From NCBI GenBank assembly GCA_035255945.1, contig DATEZA010000319.1, positions 1,606 through 65,605 of the forward strand: a DNA stretch of 64,000 nucleotides. The letters run 5' to 3'. Below the pieces are notes generated by a model. The model made no database searches. It saw only the letters and a program-made list of their open reading frames with translations, and was not told where the DNA came from. Numbering within the stretch: the first letter of the stretch is position 1; every line of letters begins with the position of its first letter. Below, piece after piece: positions 2,616-61,838 of the stretch. The DNA comes from Thermoanaerobaculia bacterium. GTDB taxonomy: Bacteria; Acidobacteriota; Thermoanaerobaculia; Gp7-AA8. Position numbers and translations under genes: made by a program.

Positions 2616-5366
2616 ATGCCCACTCGCACCATCGCGATCCGCGGCGCACGGACTCACAACCTCAAGAACGTCAACGTCGAGATCCCGCAGCGCCAGCTGA
2701 CGGTCATCACCGGTCCGTCCGGCTCCGGAAAGTCGTCGCTTGCGTTCAACACGCTGTACGCCGAAGGTCAGCGACGCTTCGTCGAATCGATGTCGACGTA
2801 CGTGCGGCAGTTCCTGGAGCGGATCGATCGTCCCGACGTGGACGAGATCGACGGAATCCTGCCGGCGATCGCGATCGAACAGAAGAACTCGGTGAAGAAC
2901 GCGCGCTCCACCGTCGCGACCGCCACCGAGCTCGCCGATCACATCCGTCTCTTCATGACGTATTGCGGCGAGACGTGGTGCGCCGACTGCCAGACGAAAG
3001 TGCGCAAGGAATCGCCGGAGTCGATCACCCGCGAGATTGCATCGACGCTCGCGGACAAGCGCGTCGTCGTGCTCGCGCCCGTCTTCTTCGAAGCGGCGAA
3101 TCGCAGCGAAGTGCTCGTGCAGCTGATCAAAGCGGGCTACTTCCGCGCATGGATCAACGGCGCGGTTGCCGATCTGAAGGAAGTGGAGACCGACGGCTTC
3201 ACGTCGCTCGAGATCGTCATCACGCGGCTGCGCGTCGATGAAGAGAAGCGCTTGCAGATCACCGAAGCGATCGAGCAGGCGTTCGAGATCTCCAAGGGCA
3301 CCGTGAACGTGCTCGAAGAGACCGAGGAAGGCTGGCACTCGCATCGATTCACATCGCGCTTCGCGTGCAACAAGTGCGGGAACGAGTTCATCGAGCCGAC
3401 GCCGCACCTCTTCTCCTTCAACTCGCCCCTCGGCGCGTGCACGGTCTGCCAGGGCTACGGCCGGATCATCGGCATCGACATGGAGAAAGTGATTCCGAAT
3501 CGCGCGCTGCGGCTCGACGAGCAGCCGATCGCGCCGTGGAACTCGGCCGGTTACGAAGACTGCTACGAAGACCTCGAGAAGGCTTCGAAGAAGTACGGCC
3601 TGCGGCTCAATGTACCGATCAATCAGCTCACGCCCGCGGAGTGGGAGCTGCTCTACAACGGCCGCAGCAAGTGGTACGGCATCAAAGGCTTTTTCGACTG
3701 GCTGGAGACGAAGAAGTACAAGATCCACGTCCGCGTGAAGCTGGCGAAGTACCGCAGCTACGAGCCGTGTCCCGACTGCCACGGCTCGCGATTGAAGAGC
3801 GCGGCGAACAACGTGAAGTTCCGCGACCTCTCGATTGCGCAGCTCTTCGCGATGGATGTGAAAACGGCGCGGCGATTCTGGGAGTACCTCCCGCTCGACC
3901 GCCACGAGGAAGCGATCGCCGGACATCTCCGCCGCGAGATCGTCAACAGGTTGACCTATCTCGACGAAGTCGGATTGTCGTACCTCACGCTCGATCGCCA
4001 GACGCGCACGCTGTCCGGCGGCGAGGCGCAGCGCATCAACCTCGCGGCGGCACTCGGATCGTCGCTGACCGAGACGATGTACGTGATCGACGAGCCGACG
4101 GTCGGCCTGCACGCGCGCGACAGCGAACGGCTGCTCGCGGTGCTCAAGCGCCTGCGCAATGCGGGGAACACGGTGATCGTGGTGGAGCACGATCCAACGA
4201 TCATCGCCGGCGCGGATCACAACATTGAGATCGGGCCGGGGGCGGGGGAGTACGGCGGAGAGATTCAATATGTGGGGAAGCCGCGCGCTGTGGACAACGG
4301 GTCCTTCGCCGTCGTTGCGGCTCAGGATGACACCTCGTCGGGACACATCAAGATCCGTAACGCGCGCGAGCACAACCTCAAAGGCGTCGACGTCACGATC
4401 CCTCTCGGCAAACTCGTCGCGCTCACCGGCGTCTCGGGCTCGGGTAAATCGACACTCATCCGCAACTGCCTGTTCAATCGCTACCAGCGCGACGTCCGGG
4501 GCACGAACGGTCTCGATGTCGGTAAGAGCGAGCTCGAAGGGACGGAGCTGATCTACGACATGGAGTTCGTCGATCAGTCGCCGATCGGCCGCTCCTCGCG
4601 CTCCAATCCCGCGACCTACATCAAGGTCTGGGACGACGTCCGCAAACTCATGTCCGAGACCACCGGCGCGAAGCTCAACGGCGTCACCGCCGGCATGTTC
4701 TCGTTCAACACGGAAGGCGGACGCTGCGAAACGTGCGAAGGCGCCGGCACGGTGAAGATCGACATGCAGTTCCTCGCAGACGTCGAAGTGATCTGCGAGA
4801 AGTGCAACGGCCGCCGCTTCGGCGAGCAGGTGATGAAGGTCCGGTACAAAGGTAAAGATGTTGACCAGATCCTGAATCTCACCGTCGACGAAGCGACGAA
4901 GTTCTTCATCGACAAGCGCGGTGTCCTCAAGAAGCTCGCCTCGCTCCGCTCCGTCGGCCTCGGTTACCTCCGCCTCGGACAATCAACCGACTCGCTCTCC
5001 GGCGGCGAAGCGCAGCGGCTCAAGCTCGCGTCGTTCCTCGCGGAATCCGCAGCGAAAGCGAACGAGAACGGCGGACGCCTTTTCCTCTTCGACGAACCGA
5101 CGACCGGCCTCGCGGCAACCGATGTCGCGCAGCTCATCACCACCTTCCGCGATCTCCTCGACCGCGGCAACTCCGTGCTGGTGATCGAGCACAACCTGCA
5201 GCTGATCGAAGCCGCGGATTACGTGATCGATCTCGGTCCGGAGGGAGGCGACGGAGGCGGCGAGGTGGTCGCAGTCGGGACGCCGGAGGAGATCGCGGCG
5301 AATCCGCGATCGATCACCGGACGGTATCTCGCGGCGTCAGCGACGATTCGCAGCGTGTCATCCTGA
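2616..5366 (+). CDS. uvrA: Excinuclease ABC subunit A (UvrA)
   Basis: The 916-aa product has the N-terminus [33 protein letters not shown]. It carries two ABC ATPase modules (LSGGEAQR twice) and zinc-finger cysteine clusters. Confidence 0.95.
4280..4330 (+). repeat. In-frame copy of one arm of the GTCATCCTGAGC-type inverted-repeat element, inside the uvrA coding sequence
   Basis: About 52 nt (ccgcgcgctgtggacaacgggtccttcgccgtcgttgcggctcaggatgacac) match the right arm of the element at 5395-5452 with only a few mismatches. The segment encodes [11 protein letters not shown] in the UvrA inter-module linker. Confidence 0.6.
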
Positions 5367-5452
5367 GGTGCGAAGACACCGAAGGACCCGTGACTTCACA
5401 CGCTGCGCGCTCACGTTACGGGTCCTTCGCCGTCTTCGCGGCTCAGGATGAC
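5357..5452. repeat. Family-A dispersed inverted-repeat element (termini GTCATCCTGAGC ... GCTCAGGATGAC), about 96 bp
   Basis: Arms of about 38 bp (gtcatcctgaggtgcgaagacaccgaaggacccgtgac / gttacgggtccttcgccgtcttcgcggctcaggatgac) flank a short centre. The left arm supplies the uvrA stop codon (gtg tca tcc tga = VSS*). Confidence 0.8.
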
Positions 5453-5463
5453 AAAATCACGAC

Positions 5464-8425: not shown

Positions 8426-8432
8426 TGACGAC

Positions 8433-8461
8433 GGCCCGCTTCGGCGGGCCGTTTCGTTTTT
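8433..8461 (+). terminator. Rho-independent terminator downstream of the OPT transporter gene
   Basis: A GGCCCGC-TTCG-GCGGGCC stem-loop is followed by GTTTCGTTTTT, starting 8 nt after the stop codon. Confidence 0.7.
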
Positions 8462-12040: not shown

Positions 12041-13914
12041 TCGCGATTCTGTTCGCCGCATTGCTGACACGCACGATCACTCCCGCGAACACAGGTCCGA
12101 ATCGCATCGATCCAGACGTCGAGCTCCTCGCCCACGCGCGGCCCGACCTCGGCGATCTGCGGCTCATCGACGCGAGCGGCCACGAAGTGCCGTACCTCGT
12201 GATCGCGCCCGCGTCGCACGATCCGAACTGGCTCGACGGCCGCGTGCTCCCGATCGCGAAAACCAAAACGACCTCCGGCTTCGAGCTCGACCTCGGCGCC
12301 GTGCACTCCATCGATCGCATCCGCATCGACGGCATCGCGACGCCGTTCCTTAAACGCGCGCAACTCGAAGGGAGCGGCGATCGCACGCACTGGACGATGC
12401 TCGCCGCCGACGCCACCGTCTTCGATCTTCCCGACGAAAAGCTGAAGAACGTCGAGATCGCGTTCGAGCCCGGCGACTATCGCTATCTGCGCATCACGTG
12501 GAACGATCGCAACAGCGCAGTCGTCACGAACGCCGGCGAAGTCTCCGCGCGACTCCACGATTCCAACACGCCGTCCGAGCCGGCGCGCGTACCGCTCGCG
12601 TTCCGCAAGATCTCGAGCGAGCCGCAGAAGTCGCGCTATCACATCACGCTGCCCGGCGCGCAGCTGCCGATCGCCGCAATCGAAGCGGCCGTGACGAACG
12701 GCGAAGTGTTCCGCGAAGCGTCGGTCTACGAGCCGCATCTCGAAAACGGCCGCATCCTTCCGCAGCTCCTCGGCACATCGACGCTCAAACGCGCGGAGCG
12801 CTTCGGCGGCGTCGCAGCCGACATGGCGGTGAAGATCGCACATCCGGGCGGCGTCGATCTCGAGCTCGTCGTCGACGACAGCAACAATCCGCCGCTTGCG
12901 CTCACCAGCATCGACGCGAAGCTCGCGCCGCTGCCCTGGATCTGGTTCGAAAGCGCCGACGGAGCACCGATCACCGCGCGCTACGGCGATCCGCAAACCA
13001 CCGCGCCGCGGTACGACCTCGAGGCCTCGCGCTCGACGATTGCGAAGAGCTCACCGCCCGTCGCGCGTTGGGAAGGCGTTGCTCATCCGACGAACGTCCC
13101 GCAGGAGACGACGACCATCGCATCGTTCCGCGGCGCGACGGTCGATCGCAACGACTTCCGCTGGGCACGTGCGATCCCGAGCTCGCCCGCGGGCGTCACG
13201 CGACTCGCGCTCGATGCCGATGTGCTCTCGCACAGCCGCAGCATCGCGGACGTGCGCATCGTCGACGAGAAAGACCAGCAGATCCCGTACATCGCCGAAT
13301 ATCCGGCGTCGCCGCTCACGCTCGCGCTGAAAGTCCCGGAGCGTGCGGCCGACGGGAAGAGCTCGCGGTATTCGTTCGAGCTGCCGTACGACACGCTGCC
13401 CGAGGGCTCGCGCATCGTGTTCACGACCTCGGCGCATGTGTTCGAGCGCGCGGTCACGCTGCGCAAACCGGCGGATGAGAGTCATGGCCGCGAGCCGGCG
13501 ACGATCGACAGCGCGACGTGGAGCAGCAATCAGCCCGAGGTCGCGCCGCCGGTGCTCGTGTTCGGCCTGCCGCGCGCGAAGCATGTCGAGCTGCTCGTCG
13601 ACGAAGGGGACAACGCGCCGCTGCCGCTCACCTCGGCGACGATCGAGATGCCGGCCGTCGCGCTGCGCTTCTACAACTCCGGAGCTCCGCTCACGCTGCT
13701 GTACGGCAATGCGCGCGCCTCGGCGCCGCAATACGATCTCGCGCTGCTCGCGCCGCGCGTCCTGGGCGAGCCGGCGCACGACGTGATGCTCGGCGCGATG
13801 ACTGGGCCCGGTGCGGAGCCCGGCTCCGTCGACGCAAAGATTTTCTGGCTCGCACTCGCGCTCGCAACGGTCATCCTGCTCGCGATCCTCGCGCGCCTCG
13901 TGCGCTCCCGCTAA
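12037..13914 (+). CDS. DUF3999-like protein (N-terminal signal/anchor, large periplasmic beta-rich region, C-terminal TM anchor)
   Basis: The 625-aa product starts at an ATG overlapping the DUF2339 stop. Its C-terminus is hydrophobic (IFWLALALATVILLAILARLV). DUF3999 is a recurrent partner gene of DUF2339. Confidence 0.55.
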   Translation: MIAILFAALLTRTITPANTGPNRIDPDVELLAHARPDLGDLRLIDASGHEVPYLVIAPASHDPNWLDGRVLPIAKTKTTSGFELDLGAVHSIDRIRIDGIATPFLKRAQLEGSGDRTHWTMLAADATVFDLPDEKLKNVEIAFEPGDYRYLRITWNDRNSAVVTNAGEVSARLHDSNTPSEPARVPLAFRKISSEPQKSRYHITLPGAQLPIAAIEAAVTNGEVFREASVYEPHLENGRILPQLLGTSTLKRAERFGGVAADMAVKIAHPGGVDLELVVDDSNNPPLALTSIDAKLAPLPWIWFESADGAPITARYGDPQTTAPRYDLEASRSTIAKSSPPVARWEGVAHPTNVPQETTTIASFRGATVDRNDFRWARAIPSSPAGVTRLALDADVLSHSRSIADVRIVDEKDQQIPYIAEYPASPLTLALKVPERAADGKSSRYSFELPYDTLPEGSRIVFTTSAHVFERAVTLRKPADESHGREPATIDSATWSSNQPEVAPPVLVFGLPRAKHVELLVDEGDNAPLPLTSATIEMPAVALRFYNSGAPLTLLYGNARASAPQYDLALLAPRVLGEPAHDVMLGAMTGPGAEPGSVDAKIFWLALALATVILLAILARLVRSR

Positions 13915-14296
13915 GGAGCGCGGACGTCTCGTCCGCAGTCGCTGCGCGTCTCGCGCGGCGACTTTATGCCCGTGCTCCGCAGGACACCACGTAGTCGCGA
14001 TGCGGCGACTTACCTGCGTGCCAGGCGAGACGCCTGACACGTGCGGGCAAGATGCCCGCGCTCCGAGGGACACCACGTCGTCGCGATGCGGCGCGCGGCT
14101 CGTGCGCTCACGCTGTGGAGCGCGGACGTCTCGTCCGCAGTCGCTGCGCGTCTCGCGCGGCGACTTTATGCCCGTGCTCCGCAGGACACCACGCGGTCGC
14201 TATTCGGCGACTTACCTGCGTGCCAGGCGAGACGCCTGACACGTGCGGGCAAGATGCCCGCGCTCCGCGGGACACCACGTCGTCGCGATGCGGCGC
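13893..14296. repeat. Tandem duplication (2 x 202 bp) that includes the 3' end of the DUF3999 gene; each unit holds two copies of a 43-bp sub-repeat
   Basis: The unit starting ggagcgcggacgtctcgtccgcagtcgctgcgcg at 13915 recurs at 14117. The sub-repeat atgcccg(t/c)gctccg..ggacaccacg..gtcgcgatgcggcg occurs four times, near 13955, 14050, 14157 and 14252. Confidence 0.8.
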
Positions 14297-15988: not shown

Positions 15989-16029
15989 GAAAACCTCCTG
16001 AATAGCAGTAAGCACGCCTATCGCGTTGT

Positions 16030-16124
16030 GTCATTCCGAGCCGCGAAGACGGTCGAGGAATCCCCTGCCGAAGCACGATGAGCGCTCCGTCGGCAGGGGA
16101 TTCCTCGACTTCGCTCGGAATGAC
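16030..16124. repeat. Family-A inverted-repeat element (variant termini GTCATTCCGAGC ... GCTCGGAATGAC)
   Basis: Arms of about 45 bp (gtcattccgagccgcgaagacggtcgaggaatcccctgccgaag / cgtcggcaggggattcctcgacttcgctcggaatgac) lie between the guaD stop and the start of the secreted repeat protein. Confidence 0.75.
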
Positions 16125-16131
16125 ACGATCA

Positions 16132-17442
16132 TCATCGCGCCGCGACTTTTCGTCCCGCAATCCACGCCTCACGTACGACGCGATCGTCACCCATGAAGAT
16201 TAGACCGGCCAGGAGGTCTTCAAGTGACGATGCCCGGTCGCTGCGCATCGAAATGAGCGGCGTGGCGTGCAGGTCGAGGACGATAAAATCGGCCGATTTT
16301 CCCGCTTCGATGCTCCCCGTTTCCTTGTCCAGCGACAACGCGCGCGCGCCGCCGAGGGTCGCCAGATACCAGAGCTGAAACGGACTGAGCGACACGCCCT
16401 GCACGATCTGCACTTTGTACGCGTCGGCCATCGCGGTGAGCATCGACGGTGTCGTTCCAGCGCCGATGTCGCTGCCGAGCCCCACCCCGACGCCTGCCTT
16501 CAGCACGCGGAACAGCGGGAAGAGGCCGCTGCCGAGGAACAGGTTCGAGTTCGGACAGTGCGAGATGCGCGAGCGGCGCTGGCTCAGCAGATCGAGCTCT
16601 TCGTCGCTGAGGTAGACGCCATGTGCGAGCACGGTTTTCTCGTCGAGCAGGCCGTAGTCGTCGTACACATCCGCGTACTCGGCCTCGGCGAAGAGCTGCT
16701 GCACCCAGAGCACTTCGTTGCGATTCTCGGAGATGTGCGTGTGGACGTACGCGTCAGGGAACTCGCGCTTGAGATCGCCGGCGAAGCGAAGCAGCTCCGG
16801 CGTCGATGTCGGCGCGAAACGGGGCGTGATCGCGTAACGGAGCAGTCCGCGGTTATGCCATTTCGTCAGCAGCTCGCGGCTCTGGTCGTACGACGTGCGC
16901 GGATCCTCCAGAAGAAAATCGGGCGCGTTACGATCCATCATGTTTTTGCCGATAATTCCGCGGAAACCGCGGCGTTCGGCCTCGGCGAAGAAGATCTCGG
17001 TCGCTTCGTAGTGGATGGTCGAGAAGATCAGAGCGCAGAGCGTGCCGTTGCGCAGCAGCTCGTCGAAGAACAAGCGCGCGATCACTTCCGCGTGCTTCGG
17101 ATCCGCGAACTTCGCCTCGGTCGGAAACGTGTAGCGGTTCAGCCACTGCAGCAGATCGCCGCCGTACGAGCCGATCATCTCGAGCTGCGGCGCGTGCAGA
17201 TGCGTGTCGAAGAAGCCGGGCGAGATCAGCGCGTGACGGCCGAGGTCGGTGACTTCGCCTTCGGGACGATCGTTCCAGTCGCCGGCGCCGGCGATCCGTC
17301 CGTCATCAACAGCGAGGTACCCGTCTTCGTATGTGCGATAGGAGCTCGCGATGTCGCCCGACGCGAACGGATCGGACAGAGGCGTAAAGATCCGCGAGCG
17401 GAAAATCTGCACGGGCGAATTGTACGCGGTGCTCTGACACAC
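16132..17442 (-). CDS. guaD: Guanine deaminase (amidohydrolase superfamily)
   Basis: The 436-aa product has metal-binding motifs (FFDTHLHAPQ, HTHISEN, HCPNSN, GLGSDIGAG) and a size and pattern typical of GuaD. Confidence 0.6.
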   Translation of the reverse strand: MCQSTAYNSPVQIFRSRIFTPLSDPFASGDIASSYRTYEDGYLAVDDGRIAGAGDWNDRPEGEVTDLGRHALISPGFFDTHLHAPQLEMIGSYGGDLLQWLNRYTFPTEAKFADPKHAEVIARLFFDELLRNGTLCALIFSTIHYEATEIFFAEAERRGFRGIIGKNMMDRNAPDFLLEDPRTSYDQSRELLTKWHNRGLLRYAITPRFAPTSTPELLRFAGDLKREFPDAYVHTHISENRNEVLWVQQLFAEAEYADVYDDYGLLDEKTVLAHGVYLSDEELDLLSQRRSRISHCPNSNLFLGSGLFPLFRVLKAGVGVGLGSDIGAGTTPSMLTAMADAYKVQIVQGVSLSPFQLWYLATLGGARALSLDKETGSIEAGKSADFIVLDLHATPLISMRSDRASSLEDLLAGLIFMGDDRVVREAWIAGRKVAAR

Positions 17443-17446
17443 GGGT

Positions 17447-17543
17447 TTCGGCGGCGCAACGTCGCCTCCGGTCTATTTTCCGGGCGCGAATGCAAGCATT
17501 CGTGCCCGGGCGCGTGGCGACCGGAGGCGACGGTGCGCCGCCG
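17447..17543. repeat. Long near-perfect hairpin (about 25-bp outer arms plus nested inner arms) between the TPR-TlpA stop and the guaD start
   Basis: The arm cggcggcgcaacgtcgcctccggtc pairs with gaccggaggcgacggtgcgccgccg (1 mismatch). An inner pair is gggcgcgaatgc / gcattcgtgccc. Confidence 0.65.
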
Positions 17544-17549
17544 AGACGT

Positions 17550-19481
17550 TCACTTTCTCAAGACGTCAATTCGCCAGCTGAATTGGTCGACGAGCTTTTC
17601 CGTCCACCCTTCTTTTTTGAAGGCGATGCGTCCTTGCGGATCGAGGAACCAGGTGGTCGGGTATGCGAGCACGCCCGATCGATGCGCCCAGCCATCGTCG
17701 AGAAGGACCGTGAAATCGTAGTGATTGTCTGTCATCCATTGACGCACGATGGACGGATCGCCGTCCGTGTCGACGGTCACAATCCGCACCCGATCGTCGT
17801 CCGCATAGCGCTTCGCAAGCTTCACGATGTCGGGCATTTCCTTCACGCACCAGCCGCACCAGACGCCCCAGAAATTCACAACCGCGACCTTGCCCTTCAA
17901 ATCGGCAAGCGAGAGCGTGCGGCCGTCGAGTGTCTTCAGACGGAACTCGGGAGCACGCACCGGTTTCGCGATGCGCGACTCGAGCACGCGCTGCTTGCTC
18001 GCCGCCGTTCCGTTCGAATCGACACGCACGAGATACGCATCGAAGCCGGCGAGCGTCTTGTGCTTGCGTCGATAGAGCGCTTCGAGCGCGGCGCGATTCG
18101 GATTCACGCCGTTCGTCTGCAGAGCTAATCCCTCGCGGTAGAGCTGCTCCGCCTCGGTGATCTGCTTCTCTGCTTCATACGTCCGCGCGAGGTGGTAGAC
18201 GATCGCCGCGCTCTCCGGATAGAGCTCGCGCGCGGCGAGGATCTCCTTCTGCGCCGCGCTCGTGTTGCCGCGCGCGAGCCAGACCCAGCCGAGCGTGTCG
18301 TGCACCATGCCGCGAAGGTACCGCTCCATACGCTCGCGGGACTCCGGCGGGTCGTTCTGAAATCCGAGCAGATAGCGCTCGTTGAGATCGATCAACCTGC
18401 GCGCGACACGATCGGCGTAAACGAGGTCGAGCTTGCGGTCGGTGAGCTTCTGCACGGCGGAAGAAAGCTGCGGCACGTAGTTGACCGTCAGCGGAATGTT
18501 GTGCACCAGCGCGACGAGCCGCGCATCGTCCTTTTCATCGCGCAACAGCACCGAGCTGGCGGTGGCGATGGCATCCGGATCGCGGCGGTACGGGTAATCG
18601 AGCACGTCGCGCCACGTCGCGTTCGACTTCGCGCGCGACATCAGCACGGTCAACGCCTGCGCGCTCGCCGGCGCTTCGCGCAGGATGCGGTCCTGCACCT
18701 CGCACATACGATCGTTCATCTTCAGCTGCTGATAGCCGCGCGCGGCGAGCGACAACACGTACGGATCGCCATCCGAATCGCGAATCCATGCTTCCAGCTC
18801 GGCGGCATTCGGGAGTTGCAGCGCCATGACATAACGCGACAGCTTCGCGGCGCTCTCGAGCAACGGCTTCGCTTCATCGCGACGCCGAATCTGTTTCAGC
18901 ATCGAGCCGAGACGGTTAAGCGCGGCGATGTTCGACGGATCGATTTTCAGCGCTTCGCGATACGCCGCGATGGCCGGCTCGTCCTGCAGCATCTCGCCCT
19001 TCGCCACCCACACCCGCGCGCTCGGCGGAACCGCGTCGAGCAGGCGCATGGCGGCGTCGTGCTCGGCGATGCTGTTCAGCGCAACCGCGCGCGCGATGAC
19101 CAGCGCTTCATCCGTTTCGGATGCGAGCTTCTCCGCGGCGAGCTTGTTGTCGTCGAAGTGATCGAGATCCTCCCGATACTCATGAGCGATGGCGAACCAG
19201 GTCCATGCGCTCTCCGGATGCGTCGCGCGCATCTCCTCCGCGAGGCGCGTGGCTTCGAGGTCATCGATGTGCTGCAGATTCCGGATGAACCAGGCGTGCT
19301 GTTCGTCGGACGCCCCATCGGCGGCGGCGGAAAAATCAAACCTCTCGTATGCCTGCTGCTGCAAGGTAGTGGTCGTGGTGGTGTAGGGCAAGCTCTCAGC
19401 TTGCCCCTGTGACAAGCTGAGAGACGATGACAAGCTGAGAGCTTGTCCTACACTGGCGGCTAGGAAGAAAAGCGCAAGCAT
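17550..19481 (-). CDS. Exported TPR-repeat protein fused to a C-terminal TlpA/ResA-like thioredoxin domain (WCGWC active site)
   Basis: The start was chosen at MLALFFLAASVGQA (a signal peptide). A central helical TPR region is followed by a C-terminal VAVVNFWGVWCGWCVKEMP thiol-disulfide oxidoreductase motif. Confidence 0.65.
   Translation of the reverse strand: MLALFFLAASVGQALSLSSSLSLSQGQAESLPYTTTTTTLQQQAYERFDFSAAADGASDEQHAWFIRNLQHIDDLEATRLAEEMRATHPESAWTWFAIAHEYREDLDHFDDNKLAAEKLASETDEALVIARAVALNSIAEHDAAMRLLDAVPPSARVWVAKGEMLQDEPAIAAYREALKIDPSNIAALNRLGSMLKQIRRRDEAKPLLESAAKLSRYVMALQLPNAAELEAWIRDSDGDPYVLSLAARGYQQLKMNDRMCEVQDRILREAPASAQALTVLMSRAKSNATWRDVLDYPYRRDPDAIATASSVLLRDEKDDARLVALVHNIPLTVNYVPQLSSAVQKLTDRKLDLVYADRVARRLIDLNERYLLGFQNDPPESRERMERYLRGMVHDTLGWVWLARGNTSAAQKEILAARELYPESAAIVYHLARTYEAEKQITEAEQLYREGLALQTNGVNPNRAALEALYRRKHKTLAGFDAYLVRVDSNGTAASKQRVLESRIAKPVRAPEFRLKTLDGRTLSLADLKGKVAVVNFWGVWCGWCVKEMPDIVKLAKRYADDDRVRIVTVDTDGDPSIVRQWMTDNHYDFTVLLDDGWAHRSGVLAYPTTWFLDPQGRIAFKKEGWTEKLVDQFSWRIDVLRK
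19381..19452. repeat. Nested palindromic cluster inside the 5' coding region of the TPR-TlpA gene
   Basis: gggcaagctctcagcttgccc and gacaagctgagagcttgtc are perfect hairpins (8-9 bp stems), flanked by gtgtagggcaagct / agcttgtcctacac. They encode the low-complexity peptide GQALSLSSSLSLSQGQAESLP. Confidence 0.7.
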
Positions 19482-25283: not shown

Positions 25284-25472
25284 GATGGGCGCGTGCGTGC
25301 AATTTTATGACAGCGCACGCGCCCCGATGATTCCGGGTGCAGAGTCCGGATAGCAGCCGCTACCGGAGCGCGGGCCTCCGGCCCGCAGTCGGCGGCCGTC
25401 TCGGCCGGCGACAGGTTTTCGCGATCAGGCGAGACGCCCAATCGCTGCGGCCGGGACGGCCGCGCTCCGTGC

Positions 25473-29143: not shown

Positions 29144-29949
29144 TGATCGTCCCCGGCGCTCGCTTTGGCCTTCATCTGCATGTGCACTCGCTGCGCAGCG
29201 GAGACGATCGCGACCTCGGTCCGACCGAGTCGCGCGTCGAGATCGTGGGCGACGTGATGGTTTCGACGCATGAAGGTGCGCTCGTCGCGCAGCACGTCGA
29301 CAAGAACCTGCAGCGCATCGGTACGCCGGTGGTGATCAGTCCCGCGGTCTGGTTCTATCGCTCACTCGGATTCGCGGAGTTCTCCGTGTCGCCGCGCACG
29401 CTGGTGTACGCGACACCGGCGGCCGAGGGACACGCGACGTGGTTGGATCGAAGCGGTGCGATCGTCGGAACGATCGGGCCAAACGATGCTCGCGGCGGAC
29501 GCATCTCGCGCGATGGCCGCCACATCACGATGCCGGTGATGGATGCGGCGCACGGAACGGCTGACGCCTGGATCGCCGACATCTCACGCGCTTCGGCGGT
29601 GAAGGTGACGAATACACCATGGTCGGAAGGCTCTCCGCTGCTCTCGCCCGACGGGCAGTTCCTCGCTTACTCCGGCGAGCCGGATGGTCCGCCGCACATC
29701 TTCATGCAATCGCTCGGCGGAACACCGCAGGCGGTAACCGCGGTGCGCGGCATTCAGTACCTCAACGACTGGTCGCCCGACGGCACGACGCTGTTGTTCC
29801 GCGAGCTCGATCCGAAGACGAACATCGATCTCTGGACCGTGGCGGCGCGTCCGAATTCGCAACCGGTGCCGCTGCTGCGCACGCCGTTCAACGAGACGAA
29901 CGGCCGGCGACATCAAGACCGGACGGAGAGTGGAATGACTTCGAGGTGA
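29144..29949 (+). CDS. WD40-like (PD40/TolB-type) beta-propeller repeat protein, possibly C-terminally truncated
   Basis: The 268-aa product has PD40 repeats (SPDGQFLAYSG, WSPDGTTLLF). Its odd charged C-terminus ends just before a family-A element. The start ATG overlaps the metX stop. Confidence 0.45.
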
Positions 29950-29956
29950 CGGCCTC

Positions 29957-30051
29957 GTCATCCCGAGCGTAAGTCGAGGGACCTGGGGTGCGGGTGGCAC
30001 GATCAACGCGCCACACGCCCTCCCGGGTCCCTCGACTACGCTCGGGATGAC
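29957..30051. repeat. Family-A inverted-repeat element (termini GTCATCCCGAGC ... GCTCGGGATGAC)
   Basis: The arms gtcatcccgagcgtaagtcgagggacc / ggtccctcgactacgctcgggatgac flank a GC-rich centre. Confidence 0.75.
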
Positions 30052-30144
30052 GCTTACCGGATGGCAATCGGTTCCTGGTCGCGCGCCGTCTTTCCGGACC
30101 GGAAATGCGTCCGCTCAGCGCGGTGATCAACTGGCGCGAGCTGC

Positions 30145-31578
30145 TCAATCAGCAGGCGAAGTAGCGTTCTCGAATTCGCGCAATCGCTGCTCGAACCGCC
30201 ATTGTTCGCGCGCTTTCGCACTTTTTTTGATCAGTGCATCGCAGGCATTGCCGCACGCGTACGACGCGTATTCGCCGTTCGTCCAGAGGCTCGCGCCTTC
30301 GAGAAACGAGTACTGCAGGCTGTTGCGCGCGATGCGTTTCAACTCGCGGTATCCGAGGTTGTGCTCTTCGGCGGCGCGTTGAAACTCGGTCGTGAGATCG
30401 CCGCGCGAGACGCCGGGATCGTCGGTCGCGAGCACGACCGGTACGTGGTTCTGCAGGTAAAGACGCAGCGGATGATTCGCGCCTTTCACGCCGAGGATCA
30501 CGTCGTTGCTGGTGAGGCAGATCTCGACGGCGACGCCGCGTGACGACATCGTGCGCAGCAGCTCCGGCATGTTCGTTTCGCGCGCGACATCGACGCCGTG
30601 TCCGATCCGCTCCGCCTTCGCGATCATCACCGTATCGCGAATGTGATTGCGCAAGCCCTCGGGCGGCACGAGTCCCGGCGCGAGCTCGCCGGCGTGCGCG
30701 GTGAGCCGCACGGTCGGATAGAGCGGGCGGAGATACGCGAACATCTCCATCTGGTCGTCGAAGTTTTTCATCGACGCGTATCCGTCTTCGGGCATGACGG
30801 GATTGAGTCCGACGACGCGCGGATCGGCGCCCGCCAGCTCGAACGCGATGACGAGCTCCGAGAAAAACTGTTCGCGCGGAATGCCGCGGTGGACCTGCAC
30901 GAGGTAGCGAATCGTCGTGTTCGGACTCGCTTTGTGTGCTGCTGCATCGATCTGATCGAGATTCCTGCTCGAGAACGCGACGATCTCCGGGACCTTGCCG
31001 CTTTTCAGCAGCGCATCGCGCATCTCGGCGAACGAGGCGCCGGGCGTGAGAGTGGCGCCGAATCGCGCGGCGGCGCCGGAGCCGGCATCGAAAAGCGATT
31101 CGAGGTAGTCGACGTTCTCCGATGCGAAGCGCGTCGCGACGTTGGCGAGCATCTCGGGGACGTGTCGCGCGCTCACTGCGCGGAACTTGGTGAACGTGGC
31201 GAAGAAGTGATCGTGACCGTTGTCCGCCGCCGGATGGAAGTTGCGCATCGAAAGCGCGTCGATCAGCTGCGAGCGGAGCGCGTCGTTCATCGACTTCGCC
31301 GGCACGAGGCCGTGCGGCTCATCGCACGGTGGATTCGCGATCGTCAGCTGCGCCTTGTCAATGCAGAGGCCGTCCTGCATCGCCCAGTCGAGATAGGTCT
31401 CCGCGTACACGGCTCCGGAAAGATGCTCGTGCAGATCGCCGCCCTTCGGCATCGCCTCCAGAAATCGGCGGAGGAGGAGGGGATTGATGCGGATCTGGTC
31501 GAAGCGGTGCGCGGTGCCGGCTTCATCCGCGAAGACGCTTGTTGCGACGAGAAGGATCAGGAGGATGCGAAGACGCAT
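30145..31578 (-). CDS. Adenosine deaminase family protein with a signal peptide
   Basis: The 477-aa product starts MRLRILLILLVATSVFA. It has the HEHLSGA metal-binding motif, HAGE and ATDDPGVSRGDL motifs of the adenosine/AMP deaminase fold. Confidence 0.65.
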   Translation of the reverse strand: MRLRILLILLVATSVFADEAGTAHRFDQIRINPLLLRRFLEAMPKGGDLHEHLSGAVYAETYLDWAMQDGLCIDKAQLTIANPPCDEPHGLVPAKSMNDALRSQLIDALSMRNFHPAADNGHDHFFATFTKFRAVSARHVPEMLANVATRFASENVDYLESLFDAGSGAAARFGATLTPGASFAEMRDALLKSGKVPEIVAFSSRNLDQIDAAAHKASPNTTIRYLVQVHRGIPREQFFSELVIAFELAGADPRVVGLNPVMPEDGYASMKNFDDQMEMFAYLRPLYPTVRLTAHAGELAPGLVPPEGLRNHIRDTVMIAKAERIGHGVDVARETNMPELLRTMSSRGVAVEICLTSNDVILGVKGANHPLRLYLQNHVPVVLATDDPGVSRGDLTTEFQRAAEEHNLGYRELKRIARNSLQYSFLEGASLWTNGEYASYACGNACDALIKKSAKAREQWRFEQRLREFENATSPAD

Positions 31579-42936: not shown

Positions 42937-43512
42937 GTGGCGGACGAAACCTACAAACGGATCCTATCCCGGGCCGACGAGTTCTTCGACTCCGTGATGC
43001 AGTCGCAGCCCCAGAGCCTGCAGTGCGGCCGCGGCTGTTCCCTCTGTTGTTACGGCCTGTTCGAGATTGGCGCAGCGGATGTTGCGGTGATTGCGGATGG
43101 CCTGTCGAAGCTGAATCCCGCGCGTCGCGACATGATCATCCGGCGCGCGGTCGACATCGTCGCGTCGAGCCGCCATCCCAACCTGCGCGAGTGCTCGCCG
43201 ATCGAGAAGGACGAGTTCTTCGAGCGCACAGCATCGACACCCTGTCCGAATCTCGACGACAGCGGCTTGTGCATGATCTACGAGCATCGCCCGCTCGTCT
43301 GCCGCACGTTCGGACTCCCGCTGCGCGACGGCGCGCGCTACATCGGCGACGTGTGCGAGCTGAACTTCGAAGAGGCGACGATCGACGAAAAGGAATCAGC
43401 CGCGTGGGATCTGCAGTGGGAGGACGCGCTCGGACCGGAAGACGAGTACACGATTCCGGAGGCGATCATCCTCGCGGCGCGCATGCGGAGCTGGCTACGC
43501 GTGTCATCCTGA
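42937..43512 (+). CDS. YkgJ-family cysteine-cluster (putative Fe/Zn-chelating) protein
   Basis: The 191-aa product has CGRGCSLCC and later CxxxC...C motifs. Its stop codon lies within the left arm of the family-A element (VSS*). Confidence 0.65.
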   Translation: MADETYKRILSRADEFFDSVMQSQPQSLQCGRGCSLCCYGLFEIGAADVAVIADGLSKLNPARRDMIIRRAVDIVASSRHPNLRECSPIEKDEFFERTASTPCPNLDDSGLCMIYEHRPLVCRTFGLPLRDGARYIGDVCELNFEEATIDEKESAAWDLQWEDALGPEDEYTIPEAIILAARMRSWLRVSS

Positions 43513-43587
43513 GCTGCGGAGACGGCGAAGGACCCGTTGATCGCGCTCGAGTCACGGTTCTTCGCGCTCTGCGGCGCTCAGGATGAC
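43503..43587. repeat. Family-A inverted-repeat element between convergent genes
   Basis: gtcatcctgagctgcggagacggcgaaggacccgt ... tcacggttcttcgcgctctgcggcgctcaggatgac. Both arms supply stop codons: for ykgJ on the plus strand and for the bactofilin gene on the minus strand. Confidence 0.8.
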
Positions 43588-43958
43588 ACCTTCAGATTCG
43601 CGACGTTGCCGCCCTTCGACTTCTCGCCCATCACGCAATTGCCCTGAAAAATCGCCCCTTCTTCGATGATGAGCGCCGGCGTGTCGATATCGCTGTAGAC
43701 CTTTCCGTTGCGGTGAATCTCGACGCGCTGGTCGGCGACGATCTTTCCGATGACGGTGCCGCTGATGGCGACGCGGCCGACGTGAATGTCACCTTCGATC
43801 TGCGCGCTCTCGCCGACGATGAGCTCATTCTTCGATGTGATCCGGCCGTTGAACCGCCCGTCGATCCGCATCGTGTCCTCGAACTCGAGCTCTCCTTTGA
43901 ATAGTGAGCCGCGATCGAGGAATCCGTTCAGTTCACCGCTCTTGCCCTTCGTCGTCAT
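43578..43958 (-). CDS. Bactofilin (DUF583 cytoskeletal polymer)
   Basis: The 126-aa product has beta-helical repeats (GRFNGRITSKNELIVGESAQIEGDIHVGRVAISGTVIGKIVAD). It overlaps the parB stop by 4 nt and ends VSS* inside the family-A element. Confidence 0.8.
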   Translation of the reverse strand: MTTKGKSGELNGFLDRGSLFKGELEFEDTMRIDGRFNGRITSKNELIVGESAQIEGDIHVGRVAISGTVIGKIVADQRVEIHRNGKVYSDIDTPALIIEEGAIFQGNCVMGEKSKGGNVANLKVSS

Positions 43959-52898: not shown

Positions 52899-54206
52899 AT
52901 GAACGTCTGGAATCAGCTCCTCAGCAAGATCGAGCAAACCATTGACCGGACGGACTATGAAACGTGGTTCGCTCCGACGCGGTTTCTCGCTCGACGTGGC
53001 GATACGATCGATATCGGCATTCCGACGCAGAAGCATGTCGATGCCGTCCGCGACCGGTTCGGCTCACAAATTCGCGAGCTCCTGAACGAGCTCTCGTCGC
53101 CCGAGCGCGTGCAGGTCCACTTCGTCATCGAAGCGGCGGATGACGACCTCCCGATGATCACGCAACAGCCTCCGCGCGACGAGATGCCGTCGTCGACGTT
53201 CAACCAGCGCTACAGTTTCTCGACATTCGTCGTCGGCAGCTCGAATCAGCTCGCGTACGCCGCGGCGCTCTCGATCGCCGAAAACCCGTCCGGTTCGTTC
53301 AATCCCCTCTTTATTTATGGCGGTGCCGGCCTCGGCAAGACCCATCTGATCCAGGCGGTCGGTCAAAAGGTCCGCGAAAAAGATCCACGGAAGAAGGTCG
53401 TCTACATGTCGGCCGAAACCTTCGTGACCGATCTCATCACGTCGATCCGCTACGACCGCATGAACGCGTTCCGCGAGCGCTACCGCACGCTCGACGCGCT
53501 CCTGCTCGACGACATCCAGTTCTTTGCCGGCAAGGAGCGCACGCAGGAAGAGTTCTTCCACACGTTCAACGCGCTGCACGAAGCGCAGAAGCAGATCGTG
53601 TTCACCTCGGACGCTCAGCCGAAAGACATCCCCACGCTTGAAGAGCGCCTCCGATCACGATTCGAATGGGGCCTGATCGCAGACATTCAGGCTCCCGATC
53701 TCGAGACGAAGGTGGCGATCCTTCGCAAGAAAGCGGAAGAACGGAAGATCGATCTTCCGCAGGACGTCGCGATCTTCATCGCGGAGCGCGTGCGCTCGAA
53801 CATCCGCGAGCTCGAAGGACATCTGAACCGCGTCGCCGCGTACTCATCGCTCGCCGGTCATCCGATCACCGTCGATCTCGCGAAGGAAGCGCTGAAGGAT
53901 CTGCTGTCGAAAGAGAACAAGCCGATCACCGGACAGGAGATCCAGAAAGTCGTCGCCGCGCATTACGGCATCAAGGTCGCGGATCTGAAGTCGAAATCGA
54001 ACGCGCGGCCGATCGCGTACCCGCGCCAGGTCGCGATGTACATGTGCAAGCACCTCACCGATCTTTCGTATCCGGAGATCGGAAAGCTTTTCAACAACAA
54101 GCATCACTCGACCGTCATGTATTCGGTCGACAAGATCGATCAACTGATGCAGGACGATCCGCAGCTCGCGCGCACGATCGACATGCTCACGAAGCAGTTC
54201 CGGTAA
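52899..54206 (+). CDS. dnaA: Chromosomal replication initiator DnaA
   Basis: The 435-aa product has an AAA+ domain (GGAGLGKTHL) and the C-terminal DNA-binding signature. Confidence 0.97.
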   Translation: MNVWNQLLSKIEQTIDRTDYETWFAPTRFLARRGDTIDIGIPTQKHVDAVRDRFGSQIRELLNELSSPERVQVHFVIEAADDDLPMITQQPPRDEMPSSTFNQRYSFSTFVVGSSNQLAYAAALSIAENPSGSFNPLFIYGGAGLGKTHLIQAVGQKVREKDPRKKVVYMSAETFVTDLITSIRYDRMNAFRERYRTLDALLLDDIQFFAGKERTQEEFFHTFNALHEAQKQIVFTSDAQPKDIPTLEERLRSRFEWGLIADIQAPDLETKVAILRKKAEERKIDLPQDVAIFIAERVRSNIRELEGHLNRVAAYSSLAGHPITVDLAKEALKDLLSKENKPITGQEIQKVVAAHYGIKVADLKSKSNARPIAYPRQVAMYMCKHLTDLSYPEIGKLFNNKHHSTVMYSVDKIDQLMQDDPQLARTIDMLTKQFR

Positions 54207-55580: not shown

Positions 55581-59157
<3,577 letters not shown>

Positions 59158-59164
59158 CCCAGGT

Positions 59165-59202
59165 GTCATCCTGAGCCGCGCAGACGGCGAGGGACCCGTC
59201 AG
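59165..59202. repeat. Family-A element, left arm only (degenerate copy) in the gyrB-gyrA spacer
   Basis: gtcatcctgagccgcgcagacggcgagggacccgtcag. No matching right arm follows. Confidence 0.6.
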
Positions 59203-59243
59203 TCGAGCGGGCTGCCGTTTCAGGTCACGGACACGTTATAAAA

Positions 59244-61838
59244 ATGGCCGATTCTGATTACACGCAATTCAACGATCAAAAACTGCCCGTAAACATCGAA
59301 GACGAGATGCGCAAGTCGTATCTCGACTACGCGATGTCGGTCATCATCGGCCGCGCGCTTCCCGATGTCCGCGACGGCCTCAAGCCCGTCCATCGCCGCA
59401 TCCTCTACGGCATGTACGAGCAGGGGAACACCGCCGGCCGCGCGTACAAGAAGTCGGCGCGCATCGTCGGCGACGTGATGGGCAAGTACCACCCGCACGG
59501 CGATTCGGCGATCTACGACTCGGTCGTGCGCATGGCGCAGGAATTCTCCATGCGCTACATGCTGGTCGACGGGCAGGGGAACTTCGGCTCGCTCGACGGC
59601 GACAACCCCGCGGCGATGCGCTACACCGAGGTCCGTCTCACGCGGCTCGCCGAAGAGCTGATGCGGGACGACATCGACAAGGAAACGGTCGACTGGGTCC
59701 CGAACTACGACGGCACCGAGCGCGAGCCGTCGGTGCTGCCCGCGAAGTTCCCCAACCTGCTCGTGAACGGCTCTTCCGGCATTGCGGTCGGCATGGCCAC
59801 GAACATCCCGCCGCACAACCTCGGCGAAGTGATCGACGCCGTGTTGATGATGATCGACAACCCGAAGTCGACGGTGAAGGAGCTGATGACCGTCATGCCC
59901 GGCCCCGATTTCCCGACGGCCGGCTTCATTCACGGCATCGACGGAATCCGCCAGGCGTACGAGACCGGCCGCGGCATCATCCAGGTCCGCGCCCGCGCGA
60001 TCATCGAAGAATCGAAGAAGCAGGACAAGCAGCAGATCGTCGTGACGGAAGTTCCGTACATGACGAACAAGGCGCGCCTGCAGGAAAAAATCGCGGAGCT
60101 GGTGAAGGACAAGCGGATCGAAGGCATCACCGACATCCGCGACGAATCGGACCGCGAAGGCATTCGCGTCGTCATCGAGCTGAAGCGCGGCGAAATTGCC
60201 GAGGTCGTGCTGAACAACCTCTATTCGCAGACGCAGATGCAGACGACGTTCGGCATCATCTTCCTGGCGATCGTCAACAACAAGCCCGAGGTGATGGAGC
60301 TCCCCACGATGCTCCGTCACTTCGTCGAGCATCGGAAAGAGATCGTCGTCCGCCGCACGCGCTTCGAATTGCGCAAGGCGCAAGAGCGCGCTCATATCCT
60401 CGAGGGGCTGGTCAAAGCGCTCGATCGCCTCGACGAAGTGATCGCGTTGATCCGCTCCGCGAAGACGCCGCCGGAAGCGAAAGAAGGCCTCGTCTCGAAG
60501 TTCGAGTTCAGCGAAGTGCAGGCGCAGGCGATCCTCGAAATGCGGCTGCAGCGACTCACTGGACTCGAGCGCGACAAGATCGTGCAGGAGTACGAGGAAG
60601 TTCTCGCGCTCATCGCGAAACTGAAAGAGATCCTCGCGTCCGAGAAGCTCGTGCTCGACATCATTTCGACCGAGCTGCACGAGATCAAAGAGCAGTACGG
60701 CGACAAGCGCCGCACCGAGATCATCCCCGATGCCGGCGACATCACGATCGAGGACATGATCGCCGACGAAGACATGGTCATCACCGTGTCGCGCGGCGGC
60801 TACATCAAGCGCTCGCCGCTGTCGCTCTATCGTTCGCAGCGCCGCGGCGGCAAAGGCCGCATCGGCATGCAGACGAAGGAAGAGGACATCGTCGAGCACC
60901 TCTTCGTCGCGAGCGCGCATTCGTACGTGCTGGTGTTCACGGACAAAGGCCGGCTGTACTGGCTGAAGGTGCACCAGATTCCGGAAGTCGCGTCGAACGC
61001 GCGCGGCAAGGCGATCGTGAACCTGCTGCAGGTCGAGCAGGGCGAGAACGTCCGCGCGCTGCTGACGGTCAAGGACTTCACCGAAGCGAAGTACGTCGTG
61101 ATGGCGACGCGCGCCGGCAAGATCAAGAAGACCGAGCTCGAGTCGTTCTCGAACGTGCGGGCAAGCGGCATCATTGCCATCGACATCAACGAAGGCGACG
61201 ATCTCTACGCCGTGCGTCTGTCCGACGGCAACAGCGAAGTCTTCGTCGGCACGCACAACGGCCGCGCGATCCGCTTCCACGAATCGGATGTGCGTCCGAT
61301 GGGACGCGGCGCGGCCGGCGTGAAAGCGATCACGCTGCGCGGCGACGATCACGTCGTCGAGATGGATGTGCTGCCGGCGTCGAACGAAGTCGCAGCACCG
61401 GAAGACGCGGTCGTCGAAGAAGCCGAGAGCGAGTCGGACGAGGAAGTGATCGACACCACCGACACGCGCGGCCAGATGCTCACCGTCACCGAAAAAGGTT
61501 TCGGCAAGCGGACCCCGGTCTCGATGTACCGCCTGCAGAGCCGCGGCGGCACGGGCGTGATCAACATCAAGATCACCGAGAAGAACGGCAAGGTCGCGGG
61601 CATCGCGCACGTCGTCGGCGACGAACAGATCCTGCTCATCACCGAGCAGGGGATGATCATTCGCACGAACGTCGCCGATCTCCGTCCGATGGGGCGCTCG
61701 ACGCAGGGCGTGCGCGTGATCAATCTCGACGAGAACGATCGCGTCGTCGCCGCTGTCAAAGTCGTGTCTGAAGGTGAAGAGACTGAAAGCCTGACGCCGC
61801 CTGATTCGCCGACGCCCGATGAAGAGCCGGTGCAATAA
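59244..61838 (+). CDS. gyrA: DNA gyrase subunit A
   Basis: The 864-aa product has the active-site region [10 protein letters not shown] and C-terminal beta-pinwheel repeats. Confidence 0.97.

Follow-up and report, generated by a model that had tools for sequence, protein, structure and literature searches.

How do three genes of one bacterium come to end in the same three residues? In a stretch of 64,000 nucleotides from a Thermoanaerobaculia bacterium (Acidobacteriota; contig DATEZA010000319.1), called the window below and meant at its full length wherever window counts are given, inverted repeats of about 95 bp are dispersed between genes, and the genes of UvrA, a YkgJ-like protein and a bactofilin take their last codons, Val-Ser-Ser and a stop, from such a repeat. 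We asked what these repeats are, how they came to lie where they do and what they have done to the genes beside them. We consider it probable that they are repetitive extragenic palindromic (REP) elements of the CGTC/TGTC-tagged superfamily, organised in the manner of REPINs, which rewrite stop codons at gene junctions. Copies have been gained and lost between close relatives, and in the compact genome of this bacterium the insertions that we examined sit exactly where two genes overlapped.

The hairpin unit and its copies in the window

The sequence GTCATCCTGAGC, allowing at most one mismatch, matches the window eight times as compared with 0.55 matches expected, and none of 100 shuffled sequences reached eight. 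Furthermore, a covariance model of the hairpin unit described below, trained only on copies from other genomes and on none from the window, recovered exactly ten units with E-values between 8e-7 and 4.5e-4. The eleventh-best match (17727-17763, E = 0.11) lies within a coding sequence, is probably due to chance and was rejected. Eight of the ten units form four inverted dimers with their tags pointing outward, and the other two are singletons. An inverted-repeat scan together with a reading of the sites gave four long imperfect palindromes, at 5356-5453, 16028-16126, 29956-30052 and 43501-43589. The repeat family proposed by the initial annotation is thus real, and its list of copies was complete, with coordinates right to within a few bases.

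The first dimer (5356-5453; units 5353-5392 on the plus and 5417-5456 on the minus strand) lies between uvrA and the gene of an FMN reductase and folds with -70.3 kcal/mol (z = -11.5). The second, of the GTCATTCCGAGC type (16028-16126; units 16026-16066 on the plus and 16095-16128 on the minus strand; -71 to -74 kcal/mol), has as neighbours an amidohydrolase gene, whose minus-strand stop at 16132-16134 is 7 nt away from the unit, and a minus-strand gene of a hypothetical protein that starts at about 15988. The third (29956-30052; units 29953-29987 on the plus and 30022-30055 on the minus strand; -83.7 kcal/mol, z = -12.6) is of the GTCATCCCGAGC type, which is why its arm has no TGA; it lies between the convergent genes of a PD40-repeat protein (stop at 29947-29949, 7 nt from the unit) and of an adenosine-deaminase-like protein (end at 30145). 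The fourth (43501-43589; units 43499-43538 on the plus and 43552-43591 on the minus strand) takes up the whole gap between the convergent genes of the YkgJ-like protein (42937-43512, plus strand) and the bactofilin (43578-43958, minus strand). All four are long hairpins, with folding energies of -50 to -84 kcal/mol and z-scores of -6 to -12.6. The singletons are found at 59161-59200 (plus strand, E = 4.5e-4), in the 86-nt intergenic region between gyrB and gyrA, and at 4296-4335 (minus strand, E = 1.5e-6), in frame inside uvrA; the stretch 59163-59230, around the former, folded no better than its shuffles. The flanking genes were named by Pfam or PDB matches. Every full copy does lie 3' of a gene, as had been noted; on the other hand, since two dimers, and also the singleton at gyrB/gyrA, stand between tandem genes, these are at the same time 5' of the next gene.

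What is conserved is a hairpin unit with a 5' YGTC tag rather than the long inverted repeat. Between the copies of different genomes, conservation is confined to the outer 25-27 nt, with the consensus YGTC-ATYCY-GA-GC-GNA-GC-GA-RGRAT-C. The unit folds into a stem-loop of some 27 nt or more, in which an unpaired tag is followed by the ATYCY/RGRAT stem, two G.A pairs in tandem, the GC/GC clamp and an apex; the latter is either a GNA triloop or a longer insert, which may itself be a mini-hairpin, and the apical variant of the window reads GAG-CCG-CGAAGA-CGG-CGA. All ten window units carry the GTC of the tag, but GTC was part of the search pattern and its invariance is therefore no independent evidence. 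In the element of about 95 bp, two such units stand inverted to each other with their tags outward. What had been called a "partial" copy and an "embedded arm" are in fact complete single units, each arm being a hairpin in its own right.

The variable stem positions (two Y and two R of the same arm) covary in 261 of 279 arms from the window and at least 120 further loci; the stem types are CT/AG (109), CC/GG (68), TT/AA (47) and TC/GA (37). When 115 distinct canonical units were compared, CG was found at pair 10-26 in 70 and UA in 42 of them, and at pair 12-24 UA in 83 and CG in 31. None of 500 shuffles gave a covariation score as high, and the signal collapses when the register is slid. The stem is nine positions long; its first pair is A-T in 85 of the 115 units and its second pair T-A in all 115, whereas the N of the GNA loop is unconstrained (A 43, C 42, T 20, G 14). 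After the stem, position +1 is C in at least 90% of the units, followed mostly by T and without CCA, and position -1, counted in 256 arms, is T in 191 (75%), C in 42 (16%), G in 14 and A in 9. Of 128 dimers, 52 combine arms of two different types, which gives mismatches in the long hairpin; nevertheless, 39 of the 46 mixed-type dimers that could be scored are perfectly paired inside both arms.

These observations bear on the proposal, made in the initial annotation, that the repeat is a miniature inverted-repeat transposable element (MITE), that is, a deletion derivative of an insertion sequence with a DDE transposase, known by its terminal inverted repeats and accompanied by a target-site duplication. 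While an element of roughly 85-100 bp with conserved inverted termini and several dispersed copies looks like one, its termini are self-pairing hairpins with covariation of their own, its arms often differ in type, and single units stand alone. Target-site duplications of 2-8 nt, looked for at four boundary offsets in 128 dimers, were found at about chance level, and an insertion sequence with these ends was not seen in any locus. We hold a classical MITE to be very improbable and have given up the label.

Empty, filled and scarred gene junctions

Each arm of the fourth dimer gives Val-Ser-Ser and a stop to the gene reading into it. The YkgJ-like protein ends in ...WLRVSS with a TGA at 43510-43512 (plus strand; +8 to +10 in the left unit), and the bactofilin ends in ...NLKVSS with a TGA at 43578-43580 (minus strand; +8 to +10 in the right unit). 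Being a palindrome, the dimer allows both genes to end at the same TGA of the unit, one on each strand. In the same way, the left arm of the first dimer supplies GTG TCA TCC and the TGA at 5364-5366 to uvrA, whose product ends in ...IRSVSS. All three stops are donated as the initial annotation had described, and a comparison of orthologues with and without the element has borne out its suggestion that the C-termini were rewritten.

In a comparison of 120 YkgJ homologues, ...ARMRGWL(R) was recognised as the native end, and ...RVSS is found only in the window and in three close relatives; a few other homologues end in ...RASG, ...PASS or ...TGLSS. At the empty sites (L127 and L128/L129) the genes of YkgJ and bactofilin are convergent and overlap by 9 nt (CTACGATGA). 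The overlap reads TGG CTA CGA TGA, in which CTA is the bactofilin stop on the opposite strand. At the filled sites, which are the window and L133, the dimer sits exactly at the point of overlap. Remnants of 13 nt are seen as scars at two further loci, L130 (2017-2040, GTCATCCTGACAC) and L131 (1160-1180, GCCTCAGGATGAC); the tails left there are PASS and KVSG at the former and RASG at the latter. By their sequence, the remnants are consistent with a deletion of the interior of the palindrome between short direct repeats.

The uvrA junction gives a second comparison. The closest UvrA relative (93% identity; L134/L135) ends in ...ATITA as compared with ...ATIRSVSS in the window. At the empty site of L134, GCGTGAAG, the TGA of uvrA overlaps the GTG start of the FMN-reductase gene by 4 nt; in the window the dimer and 11 nt stand between the two genes. 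A metagenome scan with the UvrA C-terminus returned nine close relatives, of which only one (the L134/L135 contig) shares the downstream gene, and gave no further empty sites among the nine. As a side observation, uvrA is called in L134 (1-2064) as two overlapping genes (1-1258 and 1201-2064), which suggests a frameshift or an assembly error near the hypervariable linker of the protein.

At both resolved sites the insert thus lies on a junction without any intergenic DNA, so that the element has to supply the stop. Insertion on overlapping junctions in this way accounts for the stop inside the unit in three of the seven window unit ends that face the 3' end of a gene; at the other loci, of which there are at least 120, the stop is inside the unit in only about 4-9 of approximately 90-114 such ends. 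We considered RTGA as a DNA target beside which the element inserts. CGATGAAG or GCGTGAAG is indeed present at each of the two resolved empty sites, yet there is no fixed position of a TGA in the flanks of 313 arms, and we rejected this idea as unsupported.

The ending in x-Ser-Ser recurs beyond the three genes of the window, at L017, at L025, on both sides of L072 and in the UvrA protein P0130; as an example of another frame, protein P0140 ends in ...VIPSVARDLGGRAAR. Genes reading into TGA-bearing arms do so in frame b in seven cases, in frame a in five and in frame c in one, and three of the seven frame-b cases come from the window itself. The excess of frame b is slight and would be expected as well if selection favoured the shortest tail; the preferred register of insertion claimed at first was overstated.

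The TGA at positions +8 to +10 of the unit, present on both strands when the unit comes as a dimer, thus takes the place of the native stop and leaves an x-Ser-Ser tail. What look like partial deletions of the element leave short scars, in which the last residues of both proteins are still altered.

A different kind of change is seen inside uvrA. The in-frame unit at 4296-4335 encodes a 13-residue peptide in the variable linker that precedes the second ATPase module of UvrA. Solved UvrA structures have a different, longer segment at this position. In related UvrA proteins of the Thermoanaerobaculia the linker is hypervariable and contains unit-derived peptides repeatedly (P0147, P0153, P0155, P0156, P0126, P0135 and P0158), such as GSFAVSAAQDDS, VIPSAEEREGS...GSFAVSAAQDD, CHPERS...AVRDDT, CHPEREGS...FAVSAPQDDT, ...SARDD... 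and ...SSLRLGMT. Judged from these sequences, the linker is a tolerated landing site for the unit, as uvrA is in other phyla (PMC3733652).

Spread across genomes and gene context

We scanned one genome per species for the pattern GTCATYCYGAGC-N45-75-GCTCRGRATGAC and obtained at least 120 loci. The matches listed span at least 13 phyla, as counted from the titles of the records, and among them are about 32 loci from Acidobacteriota, 21 from Verrucomicrobiota and 18 from Bacteroidota (all approximate). The unit is also carried by Chloroflexota, Planctomycetota, Gemmatimonadota, Nitrospirota, Patescibacteria, Firmicutes, Desulfobacterota, Bdellovibrionota and Abditibacteriota, and by isolates of Hymenobacter and Mucilaginibacter (Bacteroidota) as well as Luteimonas and Reyranella (Proteobacteria). 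The canonical 24-nt core of the unit is identical in more than 120 genome loci and more than 120 viral contigs. The latter are contigs of IMG/VR (L215-L334), several of which have the unit near capsid and portal genes, and plasmid matches (H1-H12) come from Planktothrix, Gloeothece, Nostoc, Hymenobacter, Granulicella and Phocaeicola.

Could such palindromes have arisen without a common origin, by chance or convergence in GC-rich DNA, or as artefacts of assembly? The genome is indeed GC-rich and has many inverted repeats. However, eight motif matches where 0.55 are expected and ten model matches with E < 5e-4 in a single window, together with one identical core in genomes, isolates included, and viruses, leave this explanation practically without weight, and the copies in the Hymenobacter, Mucilaginibacter, Luteimonas and Reyranella isolates contradict an assembly artefact. 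We also observed that independent short-read assemblies of one and the same locus (L002-L004, L006 and L132) end at or inside the element. Contigs that end in this way are the signature of a multicopy repeat that breaks the assembly graph.

In carrier loci there are approximately 62 extra units per Mb, and the 64-kb window has its ten. When single units were used as seeds in viral loci, 38 tag-outward pairs (+-), 6 tag-inward pairs (-+) and 21 same-strand pairs were counted. The inner sequences of the dimers are common within a genus, as in the Hymenobacter copies, but not between phyla. One locus from the metagenome-assembled genome of a member of the Burkholderiaceae (L076, 2380-2940) shows at least five dimers of the YGTC unit, separated by degenerate half-units, in a stretch of about 600 bp. 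It is similar to the CGTC elements that have been described as "grouped" in Neisseria and Wolbachia; a transposase-like open reading frame (ORF) adjoining the array was not found by inspection.

With a home-made heuristic gene caller we placed 55 copies between tandem, 25 between convergent and 13 between divergent genes, and all six sites in the window are either in a tandem or convergent gap or inside a gene. In the flanks of 313 arms, a stop codon of any kind starts 10 nt upstream in 24 cases, as compared with a mean of about 12 for nearby offsets. The bias toward 3' ends of genes on which the initial annotation had counted is therefore real but moderate, and its picture of REP-like palindromes dispersed between tandem or convergent genes holds.

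Such a position, together with very stable hairpins and a covarying stem, might also be expected of a structured RNA in the 3' untranslated region, selected by the host and bound by a host factor as a stabiliser of the mRNA, as a terminator without U-tract or as the precursor of a small RNA, with mobility being secondary. The tandem and convergent gaps close to stops, the roughly twofold excess of stops 10 nt before the unit and a primary sequence that is kept across phyla agree with this, as does the consensus of AaHKsRNA41, which is similar but sub-threshold (40.8 against 97 bits). On the other hand, presence and absence vary at the same site among close relatives, with scars left behind, and copies occur in both orientations, in coding sequence, in arrays, in the 13 divergent gaps and in phage genomes. 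A terminator scan and a check for T-tracts on both strands flagged none of the copies and found no T-tract after any of them, although the same scan does flag a canonical terminator at 8430-8453 of the window. In Rfam, searched both at the gathering threshold and more permissively, no family reached threshold; below it there were only models of microRNA hairpins and AaHKsRNA41. In our view an RNA of this kind, kept for the sake of the host, is an unlikely origin of the family. The word terminator in the initial annotation is likewise unsupported, as these hairpins are stable but have no T-tract. At the level of RNA, the elements are probably a 3' stabiliser or barrier rather than a canonical terminator; the sub-threshold likeness to AaHKsRNA41 and the proximity to stop codons are hints in this direction.

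AaHKsRNA41 is a small RNA of Aggregatibacter in Rfam, and its sub-threshold match is at L045 749-834. Its consensus, GCUGAGCUUGCCGAAGCAUC...GAUGGUUCGGCAAGCUCAGC, resembles a dimer of the unit, which suggests that Pasteurellaceae transcribe a palindrome related to it.

Relation to known repeats, mobilisation and significance

REPs have been divided into superfamilies tagged GTAG and CGTC by Di Nocera, De Gregorio and Rocco (2013, BMC Genomics 14:522; PMC3733652). According to that study, the CGTC superfamily includes dRS3 of Neisseria and RPE-4 and RPE-6 of Rickettsia; its tag often changes to TGTC, with CCTC as another variant, and its stems of 8-9 bp start with A-T residues. Its members are mostly dimers (HH), lie between unidirectional or convergent ORFs and often within 20 bp of their 3' ends, have no dedicated transposase and include in-frame intragenic copies (PMC3733652). 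The same paper describes termini of GTAG REPs that donate stop codons, and REPs that interrupt uvrA in Opitutus terrae and Thioalkalivibrio.

The YGTC unit agrees with this superfamily in many respects. The tag is unpaired, the stem of about nine positions starts with A-T and then T-A, inverted dimers prevail (that our tag-outward pair equals HH of the paper rests on the dimer peptides of R. conorii), copies lie in tandem or convergent gaps near 3' ends or in frame within genes, and no transposase is known for either. By back-translation, peptides in the supplement (PMC3733652) would fit the same GTCATYCC head: SFPRKRES would correspond to GTCATTCCCGCGAAAGCGGGAATC, DPGLRRDD to GTCATCCCGGCGAAGGCCGGGATC read as its reverse complement, and VIAGLDPAIH would fit the head as well. 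A difference is that the stem of our unit contains two tandem G.A pairs (GAGC...GCGA). Moreover, the CGTC study covers five phyla, while the YGTC/GAGC unit is found in at least 13 phyla and in phages. The peptide signatures AQDD, LRMT, PERSE and SEAK of the unit were not found in the tables of PMC3733652, and full-text literature searches for its DNA strings and encoded peptides returned nothing relevant. The YGTC hairpin family may be new, and so may the extent to which it is spread over phyla and phages, whereas the phenomenon as a class has already been published.

The organisation of the dimers is similar to that of REPINs (Bertels and Rainey 2011), which are GTAG REPs of Pseudomonas and Enterobacteria that go with a RAYT, a REP-associated tyrosine transposase. 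There, too, an inverted pair of hairpins makes one long hairpin, which is the replicating unit, singletons exist, inner sequences are specific to a genus, and there is no target duplication; however, the tag is GTAG there and YGTC here. With the Rickettsia palindromic elements (RPE) and the uvrA REPs of Opitutus terrae and Thioalkalivibrio the unit has in common the in-frame insertion, uvrA included, but its sequence and the host phylum are different. REPs of E. coli within 15 nt of stop codons come from Liang, Rudd and Deutscher (2015), as cited in PMC6006769. In the window, by contrast, the stop codon sits inside the hairpin. A stable hairpin at or just past a stop codon could reportedly stall terminating ribosomes. 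We also considered the class 3 repeats of TnpA(Y1), with a CnGA foot, which Quentin et al. (2018) described for Acidobacteria and Planctomycetes, with about 600 in Solibacter usitatus. They are similar in their high copy number, a CnGAGC start and internal mismatches of the GA type; we rejected them as the identity of the family, as they have another sequence (CnGAGCCGCGACCGTnAGGGAGCG) without the GTCAT head and a different hairpin.

As to mobilisation, the elements would spread as hairpins of single-stranded DNA through an HUH/Y1-transposase-like (RAYT-like) or similar enzyme, without target duplication. The copies that survive would be those least harmful to the flanking genes, for example at gene boundaries where only a short tail is added.

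Several observations weigh against the assignment to the CGTC/TGTC superfamily with REPIN-like mobility. Only two insertion sites have been resolved. We clustered the ORFs within 1.2 kb of the units at 240 loci (120 genomic and 120 viral) and found no transposase, RAYT genes included, or other associated gene; the only proteins to recur were capsid and portal proteins, along with unknown ones, all of them from related phages. Loops of CGTC-1 to CGTC-4, compared here by their description in the text and the peptides of the supplement, have 4-5 nt and the tail is CCA, as opposed to a loop of 3 nt or of variable length and C followed by T or C in our unit. While populations of REPINs and RAYTs are usually specific to lineages and inherited vertically, at least 13 phyla share the unit in nearly identical form, for which a purely vertical, RAYT-like partnership gives no explanation. 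Finally, most mismatches in the stem are C.A when read on the tag strand and G.T when read on its complement (16 against 4). If the analogy with GTAG REPs holds, this excess points to the "wrong" strand as the folded one; it hints that the non-tag strand, or its RNA, may be the one that folds.

Potentially, then, the repeats could instead represent a REP family of their own, spread over the whole domain, bacteria of the candidate phyla radiation as well as phages and plasmids included, and not yet described, in which a horizontally mobile enzyme yet to be known prefers stop-codon junctions and edits C-termini to x-Ser-Ser as well as linkers such as that of UvrA. We find this doubtful, and retain the CGTC/TGTC-tagged REP superfamily with REPIN-like dimers as the probable identity of the family.

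The window contains repeats of other kinds as well. A second, unrelated REP-like family with GGAGCGCGGRC-N5-GYCCGC... units in inverted dimers is found at 13915-14266 and 25364-25469; at the former position, directly after an ORF of 1401 aa that ends at 13914, a dimer-bearing module of about 202 bp is duplicated in tandem. One REP dimer with a GTAG tag, GTGTAGGGCAAGCTCTCAGCTTGC ... GACAAGCTGAGAGCTTGTCCTACAC, is located at 19381-19453. Together with the YGTC units, the window thus holds three different families of REP type. Unrelated to the YGTC units is also an inverted repeat at 17445-17547, just upstream of the amidohydrolase start, with arms of 29 nt that are 93% complementary and 45 nt apart. 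Positions 36000-62000 are the neighbourhood of the replication origin, with the ATP synthase operon, YkgJ, bactofilin, parB, parA, rsmG, mnmG, mnmE, jag, yidC, yidD, rnpA and rpmH, besides dnaA (52899-54206), gyrB (56734-59157) and gyrA (59244-61838).

For the annotation of genomes, the family means that translated units account for many of the short "hypothetical proteins" and unusual C-terminal tails found in assemblies from soil and metagenomes; typical tails derived from it are ...VSS, ...VIPSVARDLGG... and ...FAQDD.... The junctions described here are a clean natural case in which a palindromic insert separates overlapping genes and gives the same new ending to both, and in which the scars of relatives record the history. 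The family is a good substrate for asking what mobilises the REPs tagged CGTC or TGTC, and why a hairpin of 27 nt is nearly identical across phyla.

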